From IMG/VR virus record IMGVR_UViG_3300047561_000814, positions 1 to 64,000 of that record: a DNA stretch of 64,000 nucleotides; one strand, 5' to 3'. The notes beneath the pieces are model-generated. The model searched no databases and had not been told where the DNA came from. It saw only the letters and a list, made by a program, of their open reading frames with translations. How positions within the stretch are numbered: position 1 is the first letter of the stretch; the number at the start of each line of letters is the position of its first letter. The position numbers and the translations under genes are program-made. The DNA comes from a virus. Its lineage: Duplodnaviria; Caudoviricetes. Shown here in pieces: positions 8,859 to 62,815 of the stretch.

Positions 8859-9254
8859 ATGGAATCCTTAATTAATCCAAAAACTGGTAAGCCTTATGTT
8901 AAAAATGTACGCCGTCAGGTAATAGATAAGCACTACGACTGGGGTCTTTACGTATATAAGACATCCGCTGGTAAATGGTTTACAGACGACGAAGGCTCAG
9001 TTTTAAACATACCGTCTGACCGTGGAGATCTTACAAAAATTGCAGAATTAAAAAAGGTTGCAATACACAATGGAGATGATGGACTTGGCAAAGCGGTATT
9101 TGTTCCAGGGTTGACTCAAGTTAGTGAAGAAGAGTATTCCGAACAAAAAGCAAGAATGAAAGAAGGCTTGATCCCTTCAATGAATGATTTAGGCGCTTGG
9201 CATGCAGCCCAGCAGACATTAGAAAAACATGGAAGAGGGGCTATGGATGAGTGA
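8859..9254 (+). CDS. Hypothetical protein upstream of the portal (probably leaderless)
   Basis: 133-aa ORF. TGATATACT at 8843-8851 lies 7 nt before ATG 8859. The stop overlaps the portal start region. Confidence 0.6.
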   Translation: MESLINPKTGKPYVKNVRRQVIDKHYDWGLYVYKTSAGKWFTDDEGSVLNIPSDRGDLTKIAELKKVAIHNGDDGLGKAVFVPGLTQVSEEEYSEQKARMKEGLIPSMNDLGAWHAAQQTLEKHGRGAMDE

Positions 9255-10851
9255 AGAACAGTATATCCGTGCAAGTCTTAACACAGAAGAAAAAGAAGAC
9301 AGCATCTTTAAATCGCATGATCCCTTTAACAGAACTTGGGATGTTTTAAAAGATTATGTTGGGCTTGACCAAAACTTTCGTCGTAGAACAACTCGTAATT
9401 TAACAAAATATGCTGCACCAGAATTTAATGAAGCATACCTAGACGCAGCAAACGCAACTCCATCGGGAGTAAATGCGGGATCTAAACAAATCAATCCAGG
9501 CACGGTATATAGAAATGGTTACGGACTGTTTGACGTAATCACCCCTCCATATAACATGTACGAATTAGCCAACTTCTATGACACATCTTTTGCCAACCAT
9601 GCTGCTATTGACGCTAAAGTAGAAAACATTGTTGGTCTTGGATATCGCTTTGATATTTCAGATAGAACGTTATTAAGGTTTGAAATGAACGACGATGCAG
9701 GTGCGGTAAGCCGTGCTCGTAGTCGTATTGAAAGAGCCAAGATTCAAGTACGTGACTGGCTAGAAAATTTAAATGATGATGACAGTTTTACAAAAACAAT
9801 GGAAAAGGTTTACACAGATCTTCAGGCAACAGGTAATGGATTCATTGAAATAGGTAGAACAACCGCTGGAGAAATTGGTTATATTGGCCATATTCCAGCA
9901 ACAACTGTTCGTATACGACGCTTGCGTGATGGGTTTGTCCAGATTATTGGTCAAAAGGTGGTTTACTTTAGAAATTTTGGAGCAAAGAATGCAAATCCTT
10001 TAGGCACAGATCCACGGCCTAATGAGATAATTCATTTAAAACAATACTCACCTTTAAATACATTTTATGGGGTTCCAGATATTATTGCAGCAATGCCATC
10101 TCTTATTGGAGATCAACTTGCATCTCAATATAATATTGACTACTTTGAAAACAAGGCTGTTCCAAGATATGTTGTAACCCTAAAGGGTGCAAAACTTTCA
10201 GGGGATGCTGAAGATAAGATGTTTAGATTTTTACAAACTGGACTTAAGGCTCAGTCACATAGAACTCTTTATATTCCTCTTCCTGGAGACACAGAAGGTA
10301 ATAAGGTTGAGTTTAAGATGGAGCCAATTGAAAACGGCATTCAGGACGGCTCATTTAAAGAGTATCGCAAACAAAACCGTGATGATATCCTAATTGCTCA
10401 TCAAGTTCCTATTTCAAAACTAGGTGGTGCAGACTCTGGAGGCATTGCAGCAGCACTTTCTCAAGACCGCACATTTAAAGAACAGGTTTCTCGCCCAGCA
10501 CAAAGACATTTAGAGAAGGTTGTAAATAAAATTATAAGGGAAAAGACAGATATTCTTGAACTTAAGTTTAACGAATTAACCCTAACCGATGAAATTGCAC
10601 AATCTCAAATCCTTGAAAGATATGTAAAGACTCAGGTTATGACTCCAAACGAGGCTCGTGAAATGTTAGACTTGCCACTAAGAGCAGATGGAGATACTCC
10701 ATTTGTTATGTCTCCAAGACAAGCAACTGATGCTAGAGCAAATTTAGCAGGGGATCGCCAAAGAGATTCAGAAAGAACAAATAACAATTCTGATTCGCCA
10801 ACTACAATATCTGGTCGCAATGCACAGGGTGAAGGTAGATCGTCTCAATAG
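9247..10851 (+). CDS. Portal protein
   Basis: DLQATGNGFIEI, EIIHLKQYSPLNTFYGVPD, YFENKAVP, ILIAHQVP and MTPNEARE motifs of HK97/PBSX-type portals. Precedes the protease and capsid genes. Confidence 0.92.
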   Translation: MSEEQYIRASLNTEEKEDSIFKSHDPFNRTWDVLKDYVGLDQNFRRRTTRNLTKYAAPEFNEAYLDAANATPSGVNAGSKQINPGTVYRNGYGLFDVITPPYNMYELANFYDTSFANHAAIDAKVENIVGLGYRFDISDRTLLRFEMNDDAGAVSRARSRIERAKIQVRDWLENLNDDDSFTKTMEKVYTDLQATGNGFIEIGRTTAGEIGYIGHIPATTVRIRRLRDGFVQIIGQKVVYFRNFGAKNANPLGTDPRPNEIIHLKQYSPLNTFYGVPDIIAAMPSLIGDQLASQYNIDYFENKAVPRYVVTLKGAKLSGDAEDKMFRFLQTGLKAQSHRTLYIPLPGDTEGNKVEFKMEPIENGIQDGSFKEYRKQNRDDILIAHQVPISKLGGADSGGIAAALSQDRTFKEQVSRPAQRHLEKVVNKIIREKTDILELKFNELTLTDEIAQSQILERYVKTQVMTPNEAREMLDLPLRADGDTPFVMSPRQATDARANLAGDRQRDSERTNNNSDSPTTISGRNAQGEGRSSQ

Positions 10852-10891: not shown

Positions 10892-12223
10892 ATGTTAATA
10901 AATAAGGCTCATTGGGAAACTAAAGGTGACAGTGTTCGCCTTTCAATGCCCATCGGAAAAGTAGATGTTGAGCGCCGTATGGTCTCTGGTTTTGCAACCC
11001 TTGACAACGTTGATCGCCAAAATGATATTGTAACAACAGAGTCTAGTATAGATGCTTTTAAGAATTTTCGTGGCAACCTTCGTGAAATGCATCAGCCAAG
11101 TGCTGTTGGTAAAATTGTTTCTTTTAAAGAAGATAAGTATTTTGATCCAAGCACTAAAAAGTTTTATAGCGGAGTTTATGTTTCTGCTTACGTTTCAAAA
11201 GGTGCACAGAATGCATGGGAAAAAGTTTTAGATGGAACCTATACTGGTTTTTCAATAGGTGGAAACATTAAAGAATGGGATGACGCTTACGACGAGAAAA
11301 TAGATAAGACAATTCGTGTAATTAAAACTTATGAGTTGTCAGAACTCTCTCTTGTAGATAACCCAGCAAATCAATTTGCAAACATAGTTTCTATTGAAAA
11401 AATTAATGGGCAAAACGTAGTTGATGGATATTTATCAAAAACAGAAATTGAAAATGTATTTTGGGACTCAGAAAACGGTATTGTAATGGTATCTGATTCT
11501 GACTCTGCAACAAGTCCAGTAAATGGTAATGCAATGCAGAATATTGGGTTTATAGAAAAAAATGATAAAGATACAGAAAAACTAATAAAATTCTTAGTTG
11601 ATAGTGCTAAAGGCATTAATACAATTAAGATTACTAAGGAGGTAAAACTAATGACAGAATCAACAGACACAGTTTCAGAAACTGTAGTTGAAAATGCAGA
11701 GGTTGCTCCAGAGGCACAAGCAGCAGAGGTAGTAGCAGAAGCAACAGAAATTGTTGCAGAAGCAGTAGAAACCCCTGCAGTCGTTGAAGAGGCACCAGCA
11801 GTTGAAGAAATTGCTCTTGCTAAGTCAGATGACGCTAGTGCAGAATCTTCTGTTGCAAAAGCAGCAGTTGAAGTAGAGACTGTGGTGGAAAAATCCGTTG
11901 CAGATGTTAAAGAAGAAGTTGCTAAAGCAGTTTCAGAAATTAATAGTTCTCTTACTAATGCCTTTGGCGATCTTGCTGCAACTATCAAATCTCTTAACGA
12001 GAAGGTAACAGCAGTAACAAAATCTCTTGAATCGGTAACATCTGATGTTAATGGAATCAAGAACAACTTTAACGAGTTTGGCAAGCGAGTAGATCTTGTA
12101 GAACAAGACACCGCTTTCCGCAAGTCTGGCGATCTAGGCGAGATCGTACAGGAATCACCACAAGTGATTCATAAAACCCTATGGGGCGGTCGTTTCCTCA
12201 CAAATGCCGACCTGTTTAACTAA
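10892..12223 (+). CDS. Prohead maturation protease fused to an acidic coiled-coil scaffold domain
   Basis: VSGFATLDNVDRQND, REMH, GFSIGG and ELSLVDNPAN (HK97-type protease His/Ser motifs). The C-terminal half is Ala/Glu/Val-rich then heptad-like. Confidence 0.9.
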   Translation: MLINKAHWETKGDSVRLSMPIGKVDVERRMVSGFATLDNVDRQNDIVTTESSIDAFKNFRGNLREMHQPSAVGKIVSFKEDKYFDPSTKKFYSGVYVSAYVSKGAQNAWEKVLDGTYTGFSIGGNIKEWDDAYDEKIDKTIRVIKTYELSELSLVDNPANQFANIVSIEKINGQNVVDGYLSKTEIENVFWDSENGIVMVSDSDSATSPVNGNAMQNIGFIEKNDKDTEKLIKFLVDSAKGINTIKITKEVKLMTESTDTVSETVVENAEVAPEAQAAEVVAEATEIVAEAVETPAVVEEAPAVEEIALAKSDDASAESSVAKAAVEVETVVEKSVADVKEEVAKAVSEINSSLTNAFGDLAATIKSLNEKVTAVTKSLESVTSDVNGIKNNFNEFGKRVDLVEQDTAFRKSGDLGEIVQESPQVIHKTLWGGRFLTNADLFN

Positions 12224-12251
12224 GGTAAAAAATCACTAGGAGGTGAAAATA

Positions 12252-13397
12252 ATGTCGGAACAAAACACAAATATAGAAAAAAACTATCCAGGTGCTGGAG
12301 ATGGCGCAGAGATTAACTCAGCGGGATCATTAGTATCGGGTGGTGTTGGAAGTGCAACTGGTCTGAATGCTGCAGGAGGATCTGTAGGTTCACAACTTGG
12401 TAACACTGCAACTGCTGGCTTCGGTTCAACAACTGGAGATAATGCAGTTAATCCAACAGGTAACGCAGGAGGTATTCTGCGCCCTGAACAAGCACAACGC
12501 TTTATTGATTACGTATGGGATGCAACTGTCCTTGCTAAAGATGGCCGTCGTGTCACCATGAGAGCAAACACCATGGAAATTGAAAAAGTCAACGTTGGAG
12601 AACGTGTAATTCGTGCAGCATCACAAGGCTCACCAAACTACACAAACACTGGCGCTAGATTTACAAAAGTTGAACTAACAACAAAAAAGATTCGTCTTGA
12701 TTGGGAAGTAGCAACTGAAGCACTTGAAGACAATATTGAAGGCGGAGCATTGGAAGATCGTCTAGTACGATTAATGACCAACGCATTCGGTAACGATATT
12801 GAAGATCTTGCTATCAACGGTGATGGAGCAACAGGAGATTTCTTGTCCATCATGTCTGGTTTCGTAAAGCAAACTCGTGGAACAGTAGGAAATGCTGCTC
12901 ACGAATATGCTGCAACCGTAGCAGACAATAACTTTACCACAACAGTAATGCAAGGCTTGCTATTAGCAATGCCTCGTAAGTACCGTGCCCTTAAGAGCAA
13001 TCTTAAGTTCTACGCAGGTACTGATGCTTTTGCTGGTATTGTTCGTAACAACGGTACACTAGCAGATGCTATTTCAGCAGCGTTCTCTGATCGCACTGGT
13101 AGCACACCGCAAAACCGTCAAGATTACATGGATGGTGCTGCACAGACATTTGGTAATGCACGTACAACTCGTGTACTAGGTGTAGATGTACTAGAAGTTC
13201 CTTACTACCCAGCAGGTTATGTTGATTTAACATTCCCTTCTAACCGTGTATGGGGCTTCCAGAGAGACATCACTGTAAACCGTGAATACAAACCAAAGAA
13301 AGACACAATTGAATACACAGTATTCGTACGATTTGGTCTTGCTTGGGAAGAACTAGATGCAGTCGCTTATGTTGACTCAGATAGTGCTGATTCCTAA
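12252..13397 (+). CDS. Major capsid protein (HK97 fold)
   Basis: GGAGGTG RBS. GGILRPEQAQRFIDY, EALEDNIEG, DIEDLAINGD and REYKPKKDTIEYTVFVR motifs. Follows the protease and is followed by a strong terminator. Confidence 0.92.
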   Translation: MSEQNTNIEKNYPGAGDGAEINSAGSLVSGGVGSATGLNAAGGSVGSQLGNTATAGFGSTTGDNAVNPTGNAGGILRPEQAQRFIDYVWDATVLAKDGRRVTMRANTMEIEKVNVGERVIRAASQGSPNYTNTGARFTKVELTTKKIRLDWEVATEALEDNIEGGALEDRLVRLMTNAFGNDIEDLAINGDGATGDFLSIMSGFVKQTRGTVGNAAHEYAATVADNNFTTTVMQGLLLAMPRKYRALKSNLKFYAGTDAFAGIVRNNGTLADAISAAFSDRTGSTPQNRQDYMDGAAQTFGNARTTRVLGVDVLEVPYYPAGYVDLTFPSNRVWGFQRDITVNREYKPKKDTIEYTVFVRFGLAWEELDAVAYVDSDSADS

Positions 13398-14850: not shown

Positions 14851-15299
14851 TGGATGCATGCGAAGTCACAGACTTTATGTTTCCAATGAAGGCTGATATC
14901 TACTTTCCTATTCTTGCACAAGGTGGCTATGGTCAACCTACAAAAAACTGGGTATACGATAGAACAATTACCTGTAACGCTACATCTGGAGGTAGGTTAA
15001 GAACAGAAGATGTCAAACCAGATAATTTTTTAAAATATGAAAACAAACTCATTGCAAGAACAAAAGAAGATCCAAGACTTTCTTCAAATAATGCAAATAA
15101 CGCAATAACAAATATACTTATAACAAATATTAGAGATGCATCAGATACTATTATCTACAAAGAAACAGCGGGAGCAAGATCAGGCAAAGGAACAATTTAT
15201 GAAGTAGCAACAGTTGAACCATTTGCTGGCCCATTTGGATATACAGAATATTATACAATGTTCTGGCGCAGGGCTGAAAATCAGACTGTAGGTGATTAA
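14850..15299 (+). CDS. Head-to-tail stopper/closure protein (putative)
   Basis: 149 aa, translationally coupled, canonical synteny after the adaptor. Confidence 0.55.
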   Translation: MDACEVTDFMFPMKADIYFPILAQGGYGQPTKNWVYDRTITCNATSGGRLRTEDVKPDNFLKYENKLIARTKEDPRLSSNNANNAITNILITNIRDASDTIIYKETAGARSGKGTIYEVATVEPFAGPFGYTEYYTMFWRRAENQTVGD

Positions 15300-58866: not shown

Positions 58867-59274
58867 ATGTACGAATACTTTGTTAGAGAAGTAAAAAATG
58901 TTGTTGATGGAGACACCATTGACGTAGTTATTGATTTAGGGTTTGATATTTTATTTGAATCCCGTGTTCGTTTGGCTGGTATTGATACGCCAGAGTCACG
59001 GACAACAGATAAGGCTGAAAAGGCTCTTGGTCTTGAGGCTAAGGAATATTTAAAAAAACAACTTAAGGATGCTAAGTCAGTTGTCATTCGTACAGAAAAA
59101 ATGGATTCATCAGAAAAGTATGGTCGTATTCTTGGTTGGGTTTATGTTAATGGGGAATCAGATTCCGTAAACAATAAAATGATTAAAGATGGTTATGCTT
59201 GGGGATATCTTGGTGATACAAAAATTAAAGATTTTGAAATTCTTAAAAAGGCTAGATCAAAGTCTGGTAAATGA
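58867..59274 (+). CDS. Thermonuclease (SNase-like)
   Basis: VVDGDTID, VRLAGIDTPE and EKYGRILG. Confidence 0.9.
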   Translation: MYEYFVREVKNVVDGDTIDVVIDLGFDILFESRVRLAGIDTPESRTTDKAEKALGLEAKEYLKKQLKDAKSVVIRTEKMDSSEKYGRILGWVYVNGESDSVNNKMIKDGYAWGYLGDTKIKDFEILKKARSKSGK

Positions 59275-59543
59275 AAAACGTTTTTTATTTTACAGCAGAC
59301 TGGTGTAGTCCTTGTAAAAAAACAAGACCAGTTGTTGAGGAATTAAAAAAAGAAGGTTTTCAATTTCAAATGATAGATGTTGATTACGAACAACTTTTGG
59401 CTAAACAGTTTCAGGTTAAATCAATTCCTACATTTATTTTATTAGAAGACGGCAAAGAACTTGATCGTGTAACTGGGGCACAAACAAGGGCAGAGTTGGA
59501 GAACTTTATTAATTATGAAAAAATTATTCAAGAGAATATTTAA
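59271..59543 (+). CDS. Thioredoxin
   Basis: FTADWCSPCK and VKSIPTF. Confidence 0.9.
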   Translation: MKNVFYFTADWCSPCKKTRPVVEELKKEGFQFQMIDVDYEQLLAKQFQVKSIPTFILLEDGKELDRVTGAQTRAELENFINYEKIIQENI

Positions 59544-59892
59544 TCCAGATGGGAAAAGCATGAGTTCAGATGAAAATGAAATGATTGAAAAGTTGATCCT
59601 TGAGGGTGGACTAGAGGTTGCGGGTATTGATTCTGAAAACGGATCATTCCTATATTCATTTACACCTAAAATTAAAGAACTAATGCCAGAACTTTATAAT
59701 GATCATCTTAATAGAGTCAATGCTGAGATACTTTCTTTATGGGAAAGAGCCTACGTAGACATAGATTTTTTGGCAAAAGAGCCAGTGGTAACTCTTACAG
59801 ATAAGTCTTTTGATCCAGTAGAAATGTCAAAACTACGCAAGCAAGACGTTTGGGCTATAGAAGAACTTAAACGCCTTACTCGTAAAAAATAA
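59515..59892 (+). CDS. Hypothetical protein
   Basis: 125-aa ORF in operon context. Confidence 0.55.
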   Translation: MKKLFKRIFNPDGKSMSSDENEMIEKLILEGGLEVAGIDSENGSFLYSFTPKIKELMPELYNDHLNRVNAEILSLWERAYVDIDFLAKEPVVTLTDKSFDPVEMSKLRKQDVWAIEELKRLTRKK

Positions 59893-59910
59893 GTCTGATA
59901 TAATAAAAGC

Positions 59911-60678
59911 ATGAGTCATGTTGTAGAAGGCGATTTCGTAATGTTTGTTCATGAAGATGATGGAATTATGGCTGGTCGTGTTGAATATGTTATGACTAAT
60001 CCTGGCTTACTTGGTATTCCTGGCTCTGAATACTCAATGGAATATGCTGAAGATGATAAACCAGTCATTGTTCGTGCTTATAAAGAAGAAGATGGCGCAT
60101 GGGAAGAACAGCCATACGTTTTCTATCATCGCATGTCAGAAGTTGTGAAGATTGAATCACTATCTGTATCTGTTGATATGGTAATGGAAATTGGATCAAG
60201 TGGAACTGGAATTCCAACAATGCCATCGCAATCCGATATGGAAAACATGTATGCTGTTCAAATAGGAAAATCTTATAACTCAGATAATCAAGATGAAGAT
60301 AAATGGGATAACATGGAAAAAAAGTGCTGGGTTGGATATGAACAACGTGGCATGAAAGACAAGGGTGGACGAATGGTTCCTAATTGCGTTCCTGTTGGCA
60401 AATTAAATGAAATGGATGACAACATGGGAAAAGCAAAACCAAAATATGAAGACTTTATTAAACCAAGAAGTGGTGGAACTGAGCCATCTAATCCAAAACT
60501 TTATGCAACAGTTGTTCAAGCAGCAAAAGATAAGTTTGACGTTTATCCATCTGCAGTAGCAAATTCCTGGGTAGTGCAAGAATATAAGCGTCGTGGTGGC
60601 ACATACAAATCAGAATCAAAATCTACAACCAAAAGTATTTGGGGTGGAGCATTTGATCCTTTGACATTGGAAAAATAA
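59911..60678 (+). CDS. Modular hypothetical protein, candidate internal head protein
   Basis: Modules CWVGYEQRGMKDKGGRMVPNCVP and KFDVYPSAVANSWVVQEYKRRGGTY, C-terminal KSIWGGAF. Leaderless TGATATAAT promoter at 59896-59904. Confidence 0.6.
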   Translation: MSHVVEGDFVMFVHEDDGIMAGRVEYVMTNPGLLGIPGSEYSMEYAEDDKPVIVRAYKEEDGAWEEQPYVFYHRMSEVVKIESLSVSVDMVMEIGSSGTGIPTMPSQSDMENMYAVQIGKSYNSDNQDEDKWDNMEKKCWVGYEQRGMKDKGGRMVPNCVPVGKLNEMDDNMGKAKPKYEDFIKPRSGGTEPSNPKLYATVVQAAKDKFDVYPSAVANSWVVQEYKRRGGTYKSESKSTTKSIWGGAFDPLTLEK

Positions 60679-60836
60679 TGTCTAAAAAATCTTCAGGATC
60701 TTATTTTAAAAATTACGGGTTTAATCCAATACAAATTAAAGACGGCAGAATTGTTCGTTTAAGAAAAGATGGTAGTGTTAAAGCGGACTTAGGTCCATAT
60801 CCAAAAACAAAGATAGGGGTAACTCATGGCAAATAA
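60678..60836 (+). CDS. Small basic hypothetical protein (52 aa, not in the ORF track)
   Basis: TAATG coupling. Reads MSKKSSGSYF...IKDGRIVRLRKDG...HGK. Confidence 0.55.
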   Translation: MSKKSSGSYFKNYGFNPIQIKDGRIVRLRKDGSVKADLGPYPKTKIGVTHGK

Positions 60837-60930
60837 AGAACAAAAAGGTAATGCTAATAAAAAGAAAGAGCCAAAGATGACTCTTAAAGAAAAACGTGCT
60901 GTTAAGCAAGAAAAAAAGAAATCAAAATGA
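60826..60930 (+). CDS. Very basic 34-aa peptide
   Basis: AGGGG RBS. Reads MANKEQKGNANKKKEPKMTLKEKRAVKQEKKKSK. Confidence 0.55.
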   Translation: MANKEQKGNANKKKEPKMTLKEKRAVKQEKKKSK

Positions 60931-61034
60931 ATACATTTTATTTCTTGCATTCTTTAGTAATAGGTTTGTTAATGATTGGATCATTTTTTTGGGGTAAGTC
61001 TTATGAAACAAATAGGGTAAAGAAAAATGGCTGA
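60927..61034 (+). CDS. Small single-TM peptide (35 aa)
   Basis: ATGA overlap. Reads MNTFYFLHSLVIGLLMIGSFFWGKSY... Confidence 0.45.
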   Translation: MNTFYFLHSLVIGLLMIGSFFWGKSYETNRVKKNG

Positions 61035-61395
61035 TACATACACACCTACTTCAGGTATGAAGGCTGCTGCTCGTCGTGCTTTAAAATGGAAAGCAGATGG
61101 CAAGGCAACTGGTGCAGGAACTCCAGTAGGTTGGGGTAGAGCAACAGATATTGTAAATGGATCTGCTATGTCTCTTAGTACTGTTAAGAGAATGTATTCT
61201 TTTTTTTCCCGTCATGAGGTAGATAAAAAGGGTAAGGGTTTTTATTCTGGTCCAGATTTTCCATCTAATGGAAAAATTATGTGGGATGCTTGGGGTGGCG
61301 ATGCAGGATTTTCATGGAGCCGTGCAATTGTAGAAAGAGAAAAAAAGAAAGTAGAAAAGGTTTGGCAGGGAACTGCCTTTGATCTAAGAAAGTAG
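61027..61395 (+). CDS. Hypothetical protein, candidate internal head protein
   Basis: ARRALKW...GTPVGWGRA...TVKRMYSFFSRHE...WDAWGGDAG, C-terminal EKVWQGTAFDL. Confidence 0.65.
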   Translation: MADTYTPTSGMKAAARRALKWKADGKATGAGTPVGWGRATDIVNGSAMSLSTVKRMYSFFSRHEVDKKGKGFYSGPDFPSNGKIMWDAWGGDAGFSWSRAIVEREKKKVEKVWQGTAFDLRK

Positions 61396-61402
61396 TGGGT
61401 AT

Positions 61403-61564
61403 ATGGATAATTTAGAAAAAAATGAGTTAATTCAGTTAATATCATTTTATAAGCAAAAACTATCTGACGTAGAACTAGAGTCATTAAAACTACAACTTGA
61501 AGTTAATAAACTTAACTCTATGGTTTTAGGCTTGAGCAAAGAATCAGTTAAAAAAACTAAATAA
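61403..61564 (+). CDS. Small coiled-coil protein (53 aa, not in the ORF track)
   Basis: MDNLEKNELIQLISFYKQKLSDVELESLKLQLEVNKL... fills the intergenic gap. Confidence 0.55.
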   Translation: MDNLEKNELIQLISFYKQKLSDVELESLKLQLEVNKLNSMVLGLSKESVKKTK

Positions 61565-61565
61565 A

Positions 61566-61994
61566 ATGGAATATTTATTAGTTATGGGCTTGACATTGCT
61601 GGCCTACTGGTCTATAATTAAGATATCAAATAAAAAAAGAATATCATTTTTAAAAAAAATTAAATATCGGCAAAGCAATATTCATGAAATGATTAAAGAT
61701 GTTATTCCAAAAGAAAGGTTTGAGAAGCCTAAGTTTATTACTCAATCTCAAAGACATATTCAAAAAAATATGTTAAAAGTAGTAATAGAAAAAGATAAAG
61801 CATATTGGATAATGGATAATGTTTTTTATACTGCTGATGCTATTAATGGCAGGGTAGATGAAAATACAGCAAAACCATTAGATATTGAAAATATGCCAAC
61901 AAAAGAATTAGATAATATGTTATCAATACTTGATGACTTAAAACAAGGAGTGGGACCAAATGATAGTGGCAGTACAGGGAACAAAAGAGTTTAA
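61566..61994 (+). CDS. Hypothetical protein with N-terminal membrane anchor
   Basis: Hydrophobic N-terminus and AYWIMDNVFYTAD. Confidence 0.6.
   Translation: MEYLLVMGLTLLAYWSIIKISNKKRISFLKKIKYRQSNIHEMIKDVIPKERFEKPKFITQSQRHIQKNMLKVVIEKDKAYWIMDNVFYTADAINGRVDENTAKPLDIENMPTKELDNMLSILDDLKQGVGPNDSGSTGNKRV
61590..61618 (+). promoter_or_regulatory. Perfect consensus sigma70 promoter inside a CDS
   Basis: TTGACA-17 nt-TATAAT. Confidence 0.6.
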
Positions 61995-62310
61995 CCAGTA
62001 CAACATTTTTCTACGTGCCATGAGTGTTGCCTTATCAGGAATGAAAGATGAAGATAGTGAGTTCATTATTTATTCCGCTGGCCCATCAAAAATAAATAAT
62101 TTTGTTTCAGAGTTCTCTAATTTATCAGAACGTGGAATGAAGGCAAGAGGCAAAAAAATTAAATTTTATAATGTAGCACCCGTATGGTTGAGTGAGCATA
62201 TAAAGCAAATTAATTATTTTGCTTTTTTAAGTAATCCAAAAGAACCAAAATCAAAATTGGTTTTAACTGCAGAAGCAAACAACATTGACGTTGGTCTTTT
62301 TAAGTATTAG
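61960..62310 (+). CDS. SLOG/YspA-like protein (putative)
   Basis: MIVAVQGTKEFNQY N-terminus resembles YspA/DUF2493-type SLOG domains. Confidence 0.45.
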   Translation: MIVAVQGTKEFNQYNIFLRAMSVALSGMKDEDSEFIIYSAGPSKINNFVSEFSNLSERGMKARGKKIKFYNVAPVWLSEHIKQINYFAFLSNPKEPKSKLVLTAEANNIDVGLFKY

Positions 62311-62530: not shown

Positions 62531-62815
62531 TTGAAACAGCATTTATGGAAAGACCAAGCCTTGTGTTTGGGAACGGATAACAACGCATTTTTTGATAAAT
62601 ACGAAGACCATGAGGGATCTAGAAGAGACATTGATTCACTTTGCAAACAGTGCCCAGTTAGAAAAGTATGCTTTGCTAATGGCGTTTCAGGAAAAGAGTG
62701 GGGTGTTTGGGGTGGGGTATACTTAGAAGGTGGAGAAGTTTCAAGAGAGTTTAATAAACATAAAACCAAAGAAGATTGGTCTAAAACATGGCAATCACTA
62801 ACAATGGAGGAATAG
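62531..62815 (+). CDS. whiB: WhiB-family Fe-S transcription factor
   Basis: W...ALC...CKQCPVRKVC...GVWGG signature. Confidence 0.92.
   Translation: MKQHLWKDQALCLGTDNNAFFDKYEDHEGSRRDIDSLCKQCPVRKVCFANGVSGKEWGVWGGVYLEGGEVSREFNKHKTKEDWSKTWQSLTMEE

Follow-up and report, generated by a model that had tools for sequence, protein, structure and literature searches.

Three genes of an uncultured freshwater tailed phage encode products that end in the same short peptide. The phage record, IMGVR_UViG_3300047561_000814 (genome G000), is 104,477 nucleotides long, 96% complete by the CheckV estimate, and has a G+C content of 35.6%; its first 64 kb are the window, i.e., the whole stretch of DNA that was analyzed. 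The motif K-x(1-2)-W-x-G-x(1-2)-F closes three plus-strand open reading frames (ORFs): that of a prohead protease-scaffold fusion in the head module, and those of two small proteins encoded far downstream, referred to here as accessory proteins A and B (Table 1). It reads KTLWGGRF in the protease-scaffold (12173-12196, with the stop 8 amino acids [aa] further on), KSIWGGAF in A (60631-60654, stop 7 aa further), and EKVWQGTAF in B (61354-61380, stop 4 aa further). An initial annotation of the window had placed the motif at these positions, and all three were confirmed. The peptide is real, conserved, and portable, and it is common to the scaffold and to head-associated accessory modules.

The pattern K.{1,2}W.G.{1,2}F occurs in 3 of the 298 window ORFs of at least 40 aa, each time at the C terminus. 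A six-frame scan of the whole record with W[GQ]G.{1,2}F gave the same three proteins and nothing else, with the motif 4 to 8 residues before the stop, so the initial remark that no other protein in the window ends in this way also held. When the last 20 aa of 155 greedily picked ORFs were used as a control, the three observed cases compared with 0.025 expected, and none of 2000 shuffles reached three; with the loosest pattern, W.G.{1,2}F, one of 2000 did. Because the motif was defined post hoc, after it had been seen, its conservation in relatives is a stronger argument than the shuffles. Keyword searches of an incomplete literature collection found no published description of the peptide.

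Table 1. Genes, domains, and C-terminal tails in the head module and at the accessory locus
Feature	Position	Strand	Basis or remark
Portal protein (putative)	9229..10851	+	540-aa ORF directly 5' of the protease-scaffold; named from position
Prohead protease-scaffold fusion, 443 aa	10892..12223	+	Pfam, PHROG, gene position
Scaffold C-terminal tail KTLWGGRFLTNADLFN	12173..12220	+	Proposed original of the tag
Major capsid protein	12243 (GTG) or 12252 (ATG)..13397	+	Residues 71-378 match phrog_1623, "virion structural protein" (E 1.6e-70)
Accessory protein A, 255 aa, "beads on a string" mosaic	59911..60678	+	Domains in the next rows
A: Hva1_TUDOR-like beta domain	aa 1-84, nucleotides 59911-60162	+	BLASTP E 4e-10 to P0077 (P0077 carries the precomputed label PF11160)
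A: Cys hairpin CWVGY..VPNC	aa 139-162, nucleotides 60325-60396	+	Several PHROGs without assigned function
A: DUF5872-like helical hairpin	aa 192-237, nucleotides 60484-60621	+	Pfam E 3.6e-5, under the cut-off
Tail of A KSIWGGAFDPLTLEK	60631..60675	+	Kept in 80/80 homologous loci
52-aa ORF between A and B	60678..60836	+	No tail; nothing over threshold in Pfam; syntenic ORF in G001
Accessory protein B, 122 aa	61027..61395	+	Five-helix domain, aa 1-108 (phrog_2859, E 8.5e-33), plus tail
Tail of B EKVWQGTAFDLRK	61354..61392	+	Last helix ends at Q114; low-confidence hook after it
53-aa coiled-coil-like ORF	61403..61564	+	Directly after B; fused in frame behind the B tail in some relatives

Conservation of the tail

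The consensus is K-x-[ILVF]-W-x-[GDN]-x(1-2)-F, followed by 2 to 9 further residues. The scaffold ends in KSLWGGRFL or KTLWGGRFL in all 72 evaluable IMG/VR relatives (80 loci, 8 of which were left out for having too little upstream DNA for the filter), and scaffolds that are 44 to 51% identical keep the core in 7 of 7 cases (SVWGGRFL, KFWQGSFL, KWGGHFL, and SIWSGSFL). The closest cultured relatives of the protease-scaffold belong to ~130-kb Streptomyces phages (Stanwilliamsviridae) and to some Rhodococcus phages. Streptomyces phage scaffolds from two subfamilies carry the tail, that of Blueeyedbeauty ending KWGGRFL and that of NootNoot KWGGHFL. The scaffold of Rhodococcus phage Trina has KFQGLF, with an F-x-G-x-F core, and that of Weasels2 has diverged. 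A tblastn search of 50,697 phage records with the last 30 aa of the scaffold matched only 11, in each case at the gene for the "capsid maturation protease" in a Streptomyces phage.

All 80 loci of the A family have the tail, and the A homologues, which range from 185 to 517 aa, vary greatly in what precedes it: DUF5872 and DUF5824 replace one another, the Cys hairpin is gained or lost, and some homologues have an additional module, either GCSGY at the N terminus or "ALG..LP..W," with the tail always terminal. For B, the tail is found in 75 of 80 loci, four more have W-x-N-S-P-F, with N for G, and the remaining one runs off its locus. Loss of the motif from homologues of the accessory proteins, an outcome that the initial annotation had raised, was thus not seen in any evaluable locus (80 of 80 for A, 79 of 79 for B). 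The B homologue of G002 carries the tail in tandem duplication.

The AlphaFold2 model of B has a mean predicted local distance difference test score (pLDDT) of 91 and comprises helices at residues 9-23, 33-44, 50-68, 81-88, and 91-114; the last of these is followed by eight low-confidence residues (mean pLDDT of 57 for 111-120 and 47 for 121-122). In the model of A, the linkers and residues 234-255, which include the tail, are disordered. Foldseek returned nothing for the B model in the PDB at E≤0.001, the best Z score in VIA-align wide was 4.9, which is within the noise for helical domains, and the protein atlas gave only unnamed viral clusters. The capsid protein, the scaffold, and B were each compared by sequence and by profile with solved structures, and none of the three had a match.

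The distribution of the tail among the relatives compared supports a greater age for the scaffold copy than for those of the accessory proteins. Since the tail is old in scaffolds and the Blueeyedbeauty genome has no convincing cargo with it, the peptide is a feature of the protease-scaffold family that accessory proteins of a freshwater clade acquired, in agreement with the earlier suggestion that A and B borrowed it from the scaffold. Two further matches in Blueeyedbeauty were set aside. One is a 114-aa alternative-frame ORF over the portal/gp27 junction (L183, ~14900-15250, plus strand) that ends in ..KKGLEWSGPSFVQTD and is probably due to chance; it lies partly over the 3' end of the portal gene, in a frame used by neither portal nor gp27. 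The other, a motif 16 aa from the end of an ORF, was treated as chance as well.

We also note a related sequence inside longer proteins. Where the B domain is internal, the residues after its last helix often read K-[AS]-L-F-x-[DEG]-F-G-K-D-Y rather than K-x-W-x-G-x-x-F (P0134, P0135, P0136, P0181-P0183, P0068, and P0121), and the Trina scaffold ends in KFQGLFSGDYGRE. These sequences and the W-x-G-x-F tail may belong to one peptide family of the form aromatic-x-[GD]-x-F.

Other carriers and domain fusions

The B domain is widespread and highly promiscuous, with 3559 representative clusters at E≤0.001. The enrichment suggested in the initial annotation was also seen outside G000: the tail closes 26 of a diverse set of 150 proteins with the B domain, compared to 0.99 expected (0 of 1000 shuffles).

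Scanning of G006, G007, and G011 almost whole (G007 up to its last 730 bases) uncovered stand-alone proteins of other kinds that end in the tail: a 120-aa Cys-rich module in G011, an 88-aa GCSGY module in G007, and a 141-aa HAD-like protein in G006, the last with weak Pfam matches that are under the cut-offs. The tail is therefore carried by at least five unrelated module types. The GCSGY and Cys-rich modules have homologous segments (E 7e-10 and 1e-10) in one polyvalent protein, P0189, which has a single tail, at its end; the same modules thus exist either as small tailed genes or concatenated ahead of one terminal tail. The description of the peptide as a modular, portable C-terminal tag stands insofar as the tail is kept while the domains upstream of it are exchanged and as further unrelated proteins carry it. 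It has to be qualified in that copies also occur internally, at module borders and in read-through fusions.

Every evaluable record with tail-bearing cargo also has a tail-bearing scaffold of the present family (G000-G002, which were scanned whole, G006, G007, and G010). So do 4 of 4 evaluable records in which B lacks the tail, and hence co-occurrence does not discriminate. No scaffold match was found in G008, G009, and G015, records with completeness of 66%, 42%, and an estimated 92%; for P0218, no IMG/VR loci were found.

In other phages, the domains of A and B are joined to proteins of the head. Immediately 3' of their portal genes, Roseobacter phage CRP-406 and Synechococcus phages S-CBS1 and S-CBS3 encode a ~800-aa polyprotein whose N-terminal domain is B and which also includes Peptidase_S78 and Phage_capsid. 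BFVD has the B domain within proteins that bear the names prohead protease, XkdF, portal, and major capsid protein fragment. Among the representatives, fusions link it to Phage_Mu_F, portal, ADP-ribosyltransferase (ADPrib_exo_Tox and ART-PolyVal), DRAT, Zeta_toxin, NUDIX, and ferritin domains, and it co-occurs with Hva1_TUDOR, DUF5872, and DUF5824; P0205 combines B, Hva1_TUDOR, S78 protease, and capsid in one chain. No Phage_Mu_F match was found in G000, and Pfam gave no MuF or portal domain in A or B. Since their modules are fused elsewhere to protease, portal, MuF, or capsid domains, A and B look like head-internal "polyvalent" cargo. They had been described as unrelated to each other, which is right in that they have no mutual sequence similarity, but both are made of modules from one polyvalent-protein repertoire.

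Head-assembly Pfam domains are absent from all 26 B proteins that bear the tail, and among the 114 tail-less ones (those of at least 150 aa, 10 shorter ones having been dropped) there are 10 matches to S78, 8 to MuF, and 5 to portal families, these being Pfam counts per family, not per protein; a local seed search recovered only 12 anchored proteins. The distribution is suggestive of a rule by which a protein would have either the tail or a covalent anchor, not both.

Proteins with the B domain often terminate in a second recurring module, ..MPDGSFPI..RNAI.S.GRA....A..HI.RRA.ALG...LLP.DW(K) (P0125, P0128, P0132, P0143, P0167, P0176, P0189, P0216, and P0233; loci L061, L147, L282, and L339). 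It is followed sometimes by a W-x-G-x-F tail and sometimes by ..SMSKS.NYSDSRFMKYM. This module could be another terminal address or interaction module.

Head module, neighboring genes, and host

The order portal, protease-scaffold, capsid is the same as in annotated Streptomyces and Rhodococcus phages. The protease-scaffold consists of an N-terminal S78/XkdF protease, a middle part that is rich in Ala, Glu, and Val and has coiled coil, and the C-terminal tail. It scores 24.7 bits against Peptidase_S78_2 (cut-off, 24) and 23.9 bits against Peptidase_S78 (cut-off, 21), matches phrog_9427, "head maturation protease," over residues 2-440 (E 6e-114), and is 47.6% identical to the Blueeyedbeauty protease. 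With Pfam matches over the curated cut-offs and a gene that lies between those for portal and capsid, we assign it to the caudovirus prohead protease (Peptidase_S78/XkdF)-scaffold class.

The Blueeyedbeauty homologue of the capsid gene carries the note "major capsid protein." The capsid protein has no Pfam match, and sequence and profile searches gave no relative of solved structure; it presumably has the HK97 fold. Its first ~75 residues (12243-12470, plus strand) form an extension rich in Gly, Ser, Thr, and Ala that lies outside the phrog_1623 match, which begins at residue 71, and the gene has 1155 nucleotides, compared to the 996 annotated in Blueeyedbeauty. It may represent a propeptide or a delta-like region.

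At the accessory locus, two ORFs of 135 and 90 aa, the latter with a WCSPCK motif, lie just 5' of A (58867-59543, plus strand), in an order that is syntenic in G001; judged by eye only, they resemble a staphylococcal nuclease and thioredoxin, respectively. The pairing of B with a small coiled-coil partner downstream recalls the B-plus-coiled-coil "coil containing protein" of a Vibrio phage (L002:4001-5335). A nucleotide search of cultured phages with positions 59500-62000 gave no match. Just 3' of the locus is a WhiB-family gene (62546-62719, plus strand; 48.4 bits, above the Pfam cut-off). This gene, together with the affinity of the head genes to those of Streptomyces and Rhodococcus phages, suggests an actinobacterial host for G000.

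A probable procapsid-targeting tag and its alternatives

We consider it rather probable that the tail is a portable, scaffold-mimicking tag that targets proteins to the procapsid. The original home of the peptide would be the extreme C terminus of the protease-scaffold fusion, which, by analogy with other scaffolding proteins such as those of 80alpha and P22, would hold the scaffold against the inside of the shell during assembly. Accessory genes of freshwater actinophages would then have gained a copy of the peptide, and their products would dock to the scaffold's receptor and be enclosed when the shell closes, so that the tail would serve as a noncovalent alternative to fusion with protease, portal, MuF, or capsid proteins. 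Once packaged, the accessory proteins would later be ejected into the host as effectors. By the same analogy, we infer that the scaffold tail is a shell-binding element with the capsid protein as its receptor; the portal and the scaffold core are alternative receptors. Co-folding of the capsid protein with B scored 0.25, where the mark is 0.32, and this counts neither for nor against binding.

Several observations weigh against a tag of this kind. The 130-kb Blueeyedbeauty genome has the scaffold tail and no convincing accessory carrier. The genes for A and B lie ~48 kb from the head module, next to the nuclease-like and thioredoxin-like ORFs. The peptide is not strictly terminal: the 150 diverse B proteins contain 22 internal copies at module borders, and of the 120 B clusters listed, about 16 have lengths of 169 to 195 aa, and the five of these that were read all run on into the coiled-coil ORF, with the motif ~57 aa from the end (P0003, P0008, P0065, P0097, and P0103 read through the tail in this way). 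The fusions of B with DUF5872 in P0068, P0121, and P0126 end ..RRGGKY without the tail, P0068 and P0121 keeping only an internal EKSLFEGFG. In phages whose scaffold bears the tail, 62 of 77 B proteins have other C termini, as do those of G011-G014. Finally, the exclusion between tail and covalent anchor has a hypergeometric P of 0.004 to 0.12, depending on how the Pfam counts overlap. As far as these sequences go, the tag is not obligatory.

The internal copies, two of which are in P0125, could also be read as marks of processing. The peptide would then be mainly a recognition and cleavage signal for the prohead protease, which would release the scaffold and cut polyvalent proteins into modules, with no role as a binding tag; the original carrier is itself a protease-scaffold fusion, and in T4 the prohead protease cuts off the targeting peptides (PMC7411985). 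We regard this as unlikely. Where the motif stands alone, it is only 2 to 9 residues from the end, and a cut there would remove almost nothing; the tandem terminal duplication in G002 fits avidity better; and the internal copies are explained equally well as relics of gene fusion, given that separate and fused forms are both seen. Cleavage and binding could nevertheless coexist, as appears to be the case in T4.

A distinctly improbable variant keeps the scaffold's site as the target but makes A and B assembly modulators instead of cargo: they would compete with or supplement the scaffold there and affect, for example, head size or scaffold occupancy. SaPI1 CpmB, which shares the scaffold's helix-and-hook and its site on the capsid protein (PMC5644958), is a precedent, and B has some suitable company, since in Vibrio phages its domain heads a 444-aa "coil containing protein" encoded beside a head-morphogenesis gene and in some relatives it is fused to the small coiled-coil ORF. 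On the other hand, the genes are the phage's own and not a satellite's, the same tail is found on at least five unrelated module types, one of them HAD-like, and the modules are found together with domains typical of delivered effectors (ADP-ribosyltransferase, Zeta-toxin, NUDIX, and MuF).

Short C-terminal linear motifs often act as degrons or recruitment signals, and A and B are encoded among apparently nonstructural genes. The peptide might accordingly bind a partner other than the capsid, such as a host chaperone, a protease, or a replication factor; we find this quite implausible, since only in the scaffold is the peptide both universal and invariant and the domains it accompanies are head associated in other phages. 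The motif is also kept both in phages annotated with Streptomyces hosts and in G000, with its G+C content of 35.6% and its WhiB gene, and the tail is not known to match the clamp-binding or ssrA-type consensus sequences. That the resemblance is due to chance, or arose as a neutral side effect when the 3' ends of genes recombined, is scarcely credible: the motif is short and was defined post hoc, but the shuffles do not reproduce the observed count, the tail is retained throughout the A and B families while linkers vary, and the excess recurs in the independent diverse set.

With a scaffold-derived targeting tag, A and B would be packaged and later ejected. A broader proposal, which we advance tentatively and hold to be possible but somewhat short of probable, is that a "capsid zip code" of this type is widespread in tailed phages, in which a short C-terminal peptide copied from the scaffold would load exchangeable effector modules without covalent anchors, much as cargo-loading peptides do in encapsulins. 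The internal relic copies point to an origin of polyvalent proteins from fused tagged cassettes, and such proteins could have arisen by the fusion of cassettes that were once tagged individually. The peptide itself, judged from the records searched, is widespread in uncultured phages and readable from sequence.

To our knowledge, how the proteins that are carried in the head and enter the host are chosen is known for only a few model phages, with the T4 capsid-targeting sequence, MuF or portal fusions, and P1 Dar as the examples. If the tail is a targeting tag, injected proteins of uncultured phages would be predictable from sequence alone, and there would be a rule for finding candidates for delivered effectors, probably antidefense or host-takeover modules, in metagenomic phages. 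It would also offer an account of how polyvalent proteins are built, via tagged-cassette fusion, and link phage scaffolds mechanistically with cargo loading in encapsulins. Foreign proteins could, moreover, be loaded into phage-derived particles with a short peptide of natural origin.

Comparison with known systems

The analogy of a scaffold C terminus that binds the capsid protein can also be drawn from P22. In work by Duda, Oh, and Hendrix from 2013, the HK97 prohead protease, a member of the S78 family, is said to be enclosed in the procapsid via a C-terminal targeting tail. In HK97 this tail is reportedly on the protease alone, whereas here it is also on accessory proteins that are not proteases.

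The closest parallel in arrangement is phage 80alpha. Its scaffolding protein has a C-terminal helix-and-hook with an RIIK motif that binds the capsid N-arm and the A/P cleft, as seen by cryo-electron microscopy, and CpmB of SaPI1 copies the scaffold C terminus and reaches the same capsid site (PMC5644958). In G000, too, proteins other than the scaffold bear a copy of a scaffold peptide, and what is copied is the extreme C terminus. The model of B, with its long helix and low-confidence tail, may resemble the amphipathic helix and short hook described there; the tail of A is modeled as disordered. CpmB differs in being a satellite's competing scaffold that alters capsid size, whereas the carriers here are phage genes, belong to several module types, and are cargo-like. 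The W-x-G-x-F and RIIK motifs are unrelated, and binding that was visualized by cryo-electron microscopy for 80alpha and CpmB is only proposed for the tail.

The capsid-targeting sequence of T4 is an N-terminal peptide common to IPI-III and Alt that targets them to the prohead, from which they are later ejected into the host; it is said to bind the scaffolding core and to be removed by the prohead protease (PMC7411985). Like it, the tail is a short portable peptide on several unrelated proteins, although its portability is known only from nature. Unlike it, the tail is C terminal in its carriers and copies the scaffold's own end.

In encapsulins, short terminal peptides dock unrelated cargo noncovalently to the inside of an HK97-type shell, or the cargo is fused to the shell (PMC8229669). 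That choice between tag and fusion corresponds to the tail versus the protease or capsid protein fusions described above, with shell binding being assumed by analogy. Encapsulins lack scaffold, protease, and DNA, and their cargo gene lies next to that of the shell, in contrast to the presence of a protease-scaffold and the distance of ~48 kb between the A and B genes and the capsid gene in G000. The tail is not known to resemble the encapsulin motif in sequence.

Polyvalent proteins have been predicted to be packaged in the head and injected by way of MuF or portal anchors (Iyer et al. 2017; PMC5512222), and the accessible part of that paper names neither the B domain nor the tail. A and B are like them in being built of recurring modules that join effector domains. 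They differ in that G000 is without a MuF match and the modules are separate small proteins with a scaffold-like tail.

A tag of this kind would be a variation on known capsid-targeting principles, not a new principle. With 80alpha and CpmB, the HK97 tail, the T4 capsid-targeting sequence, and the encapsulins as precedents, the most economical reading is that the W-x-G-x-F tail is a docking peptide of the scaffold that accessory modules have copied.

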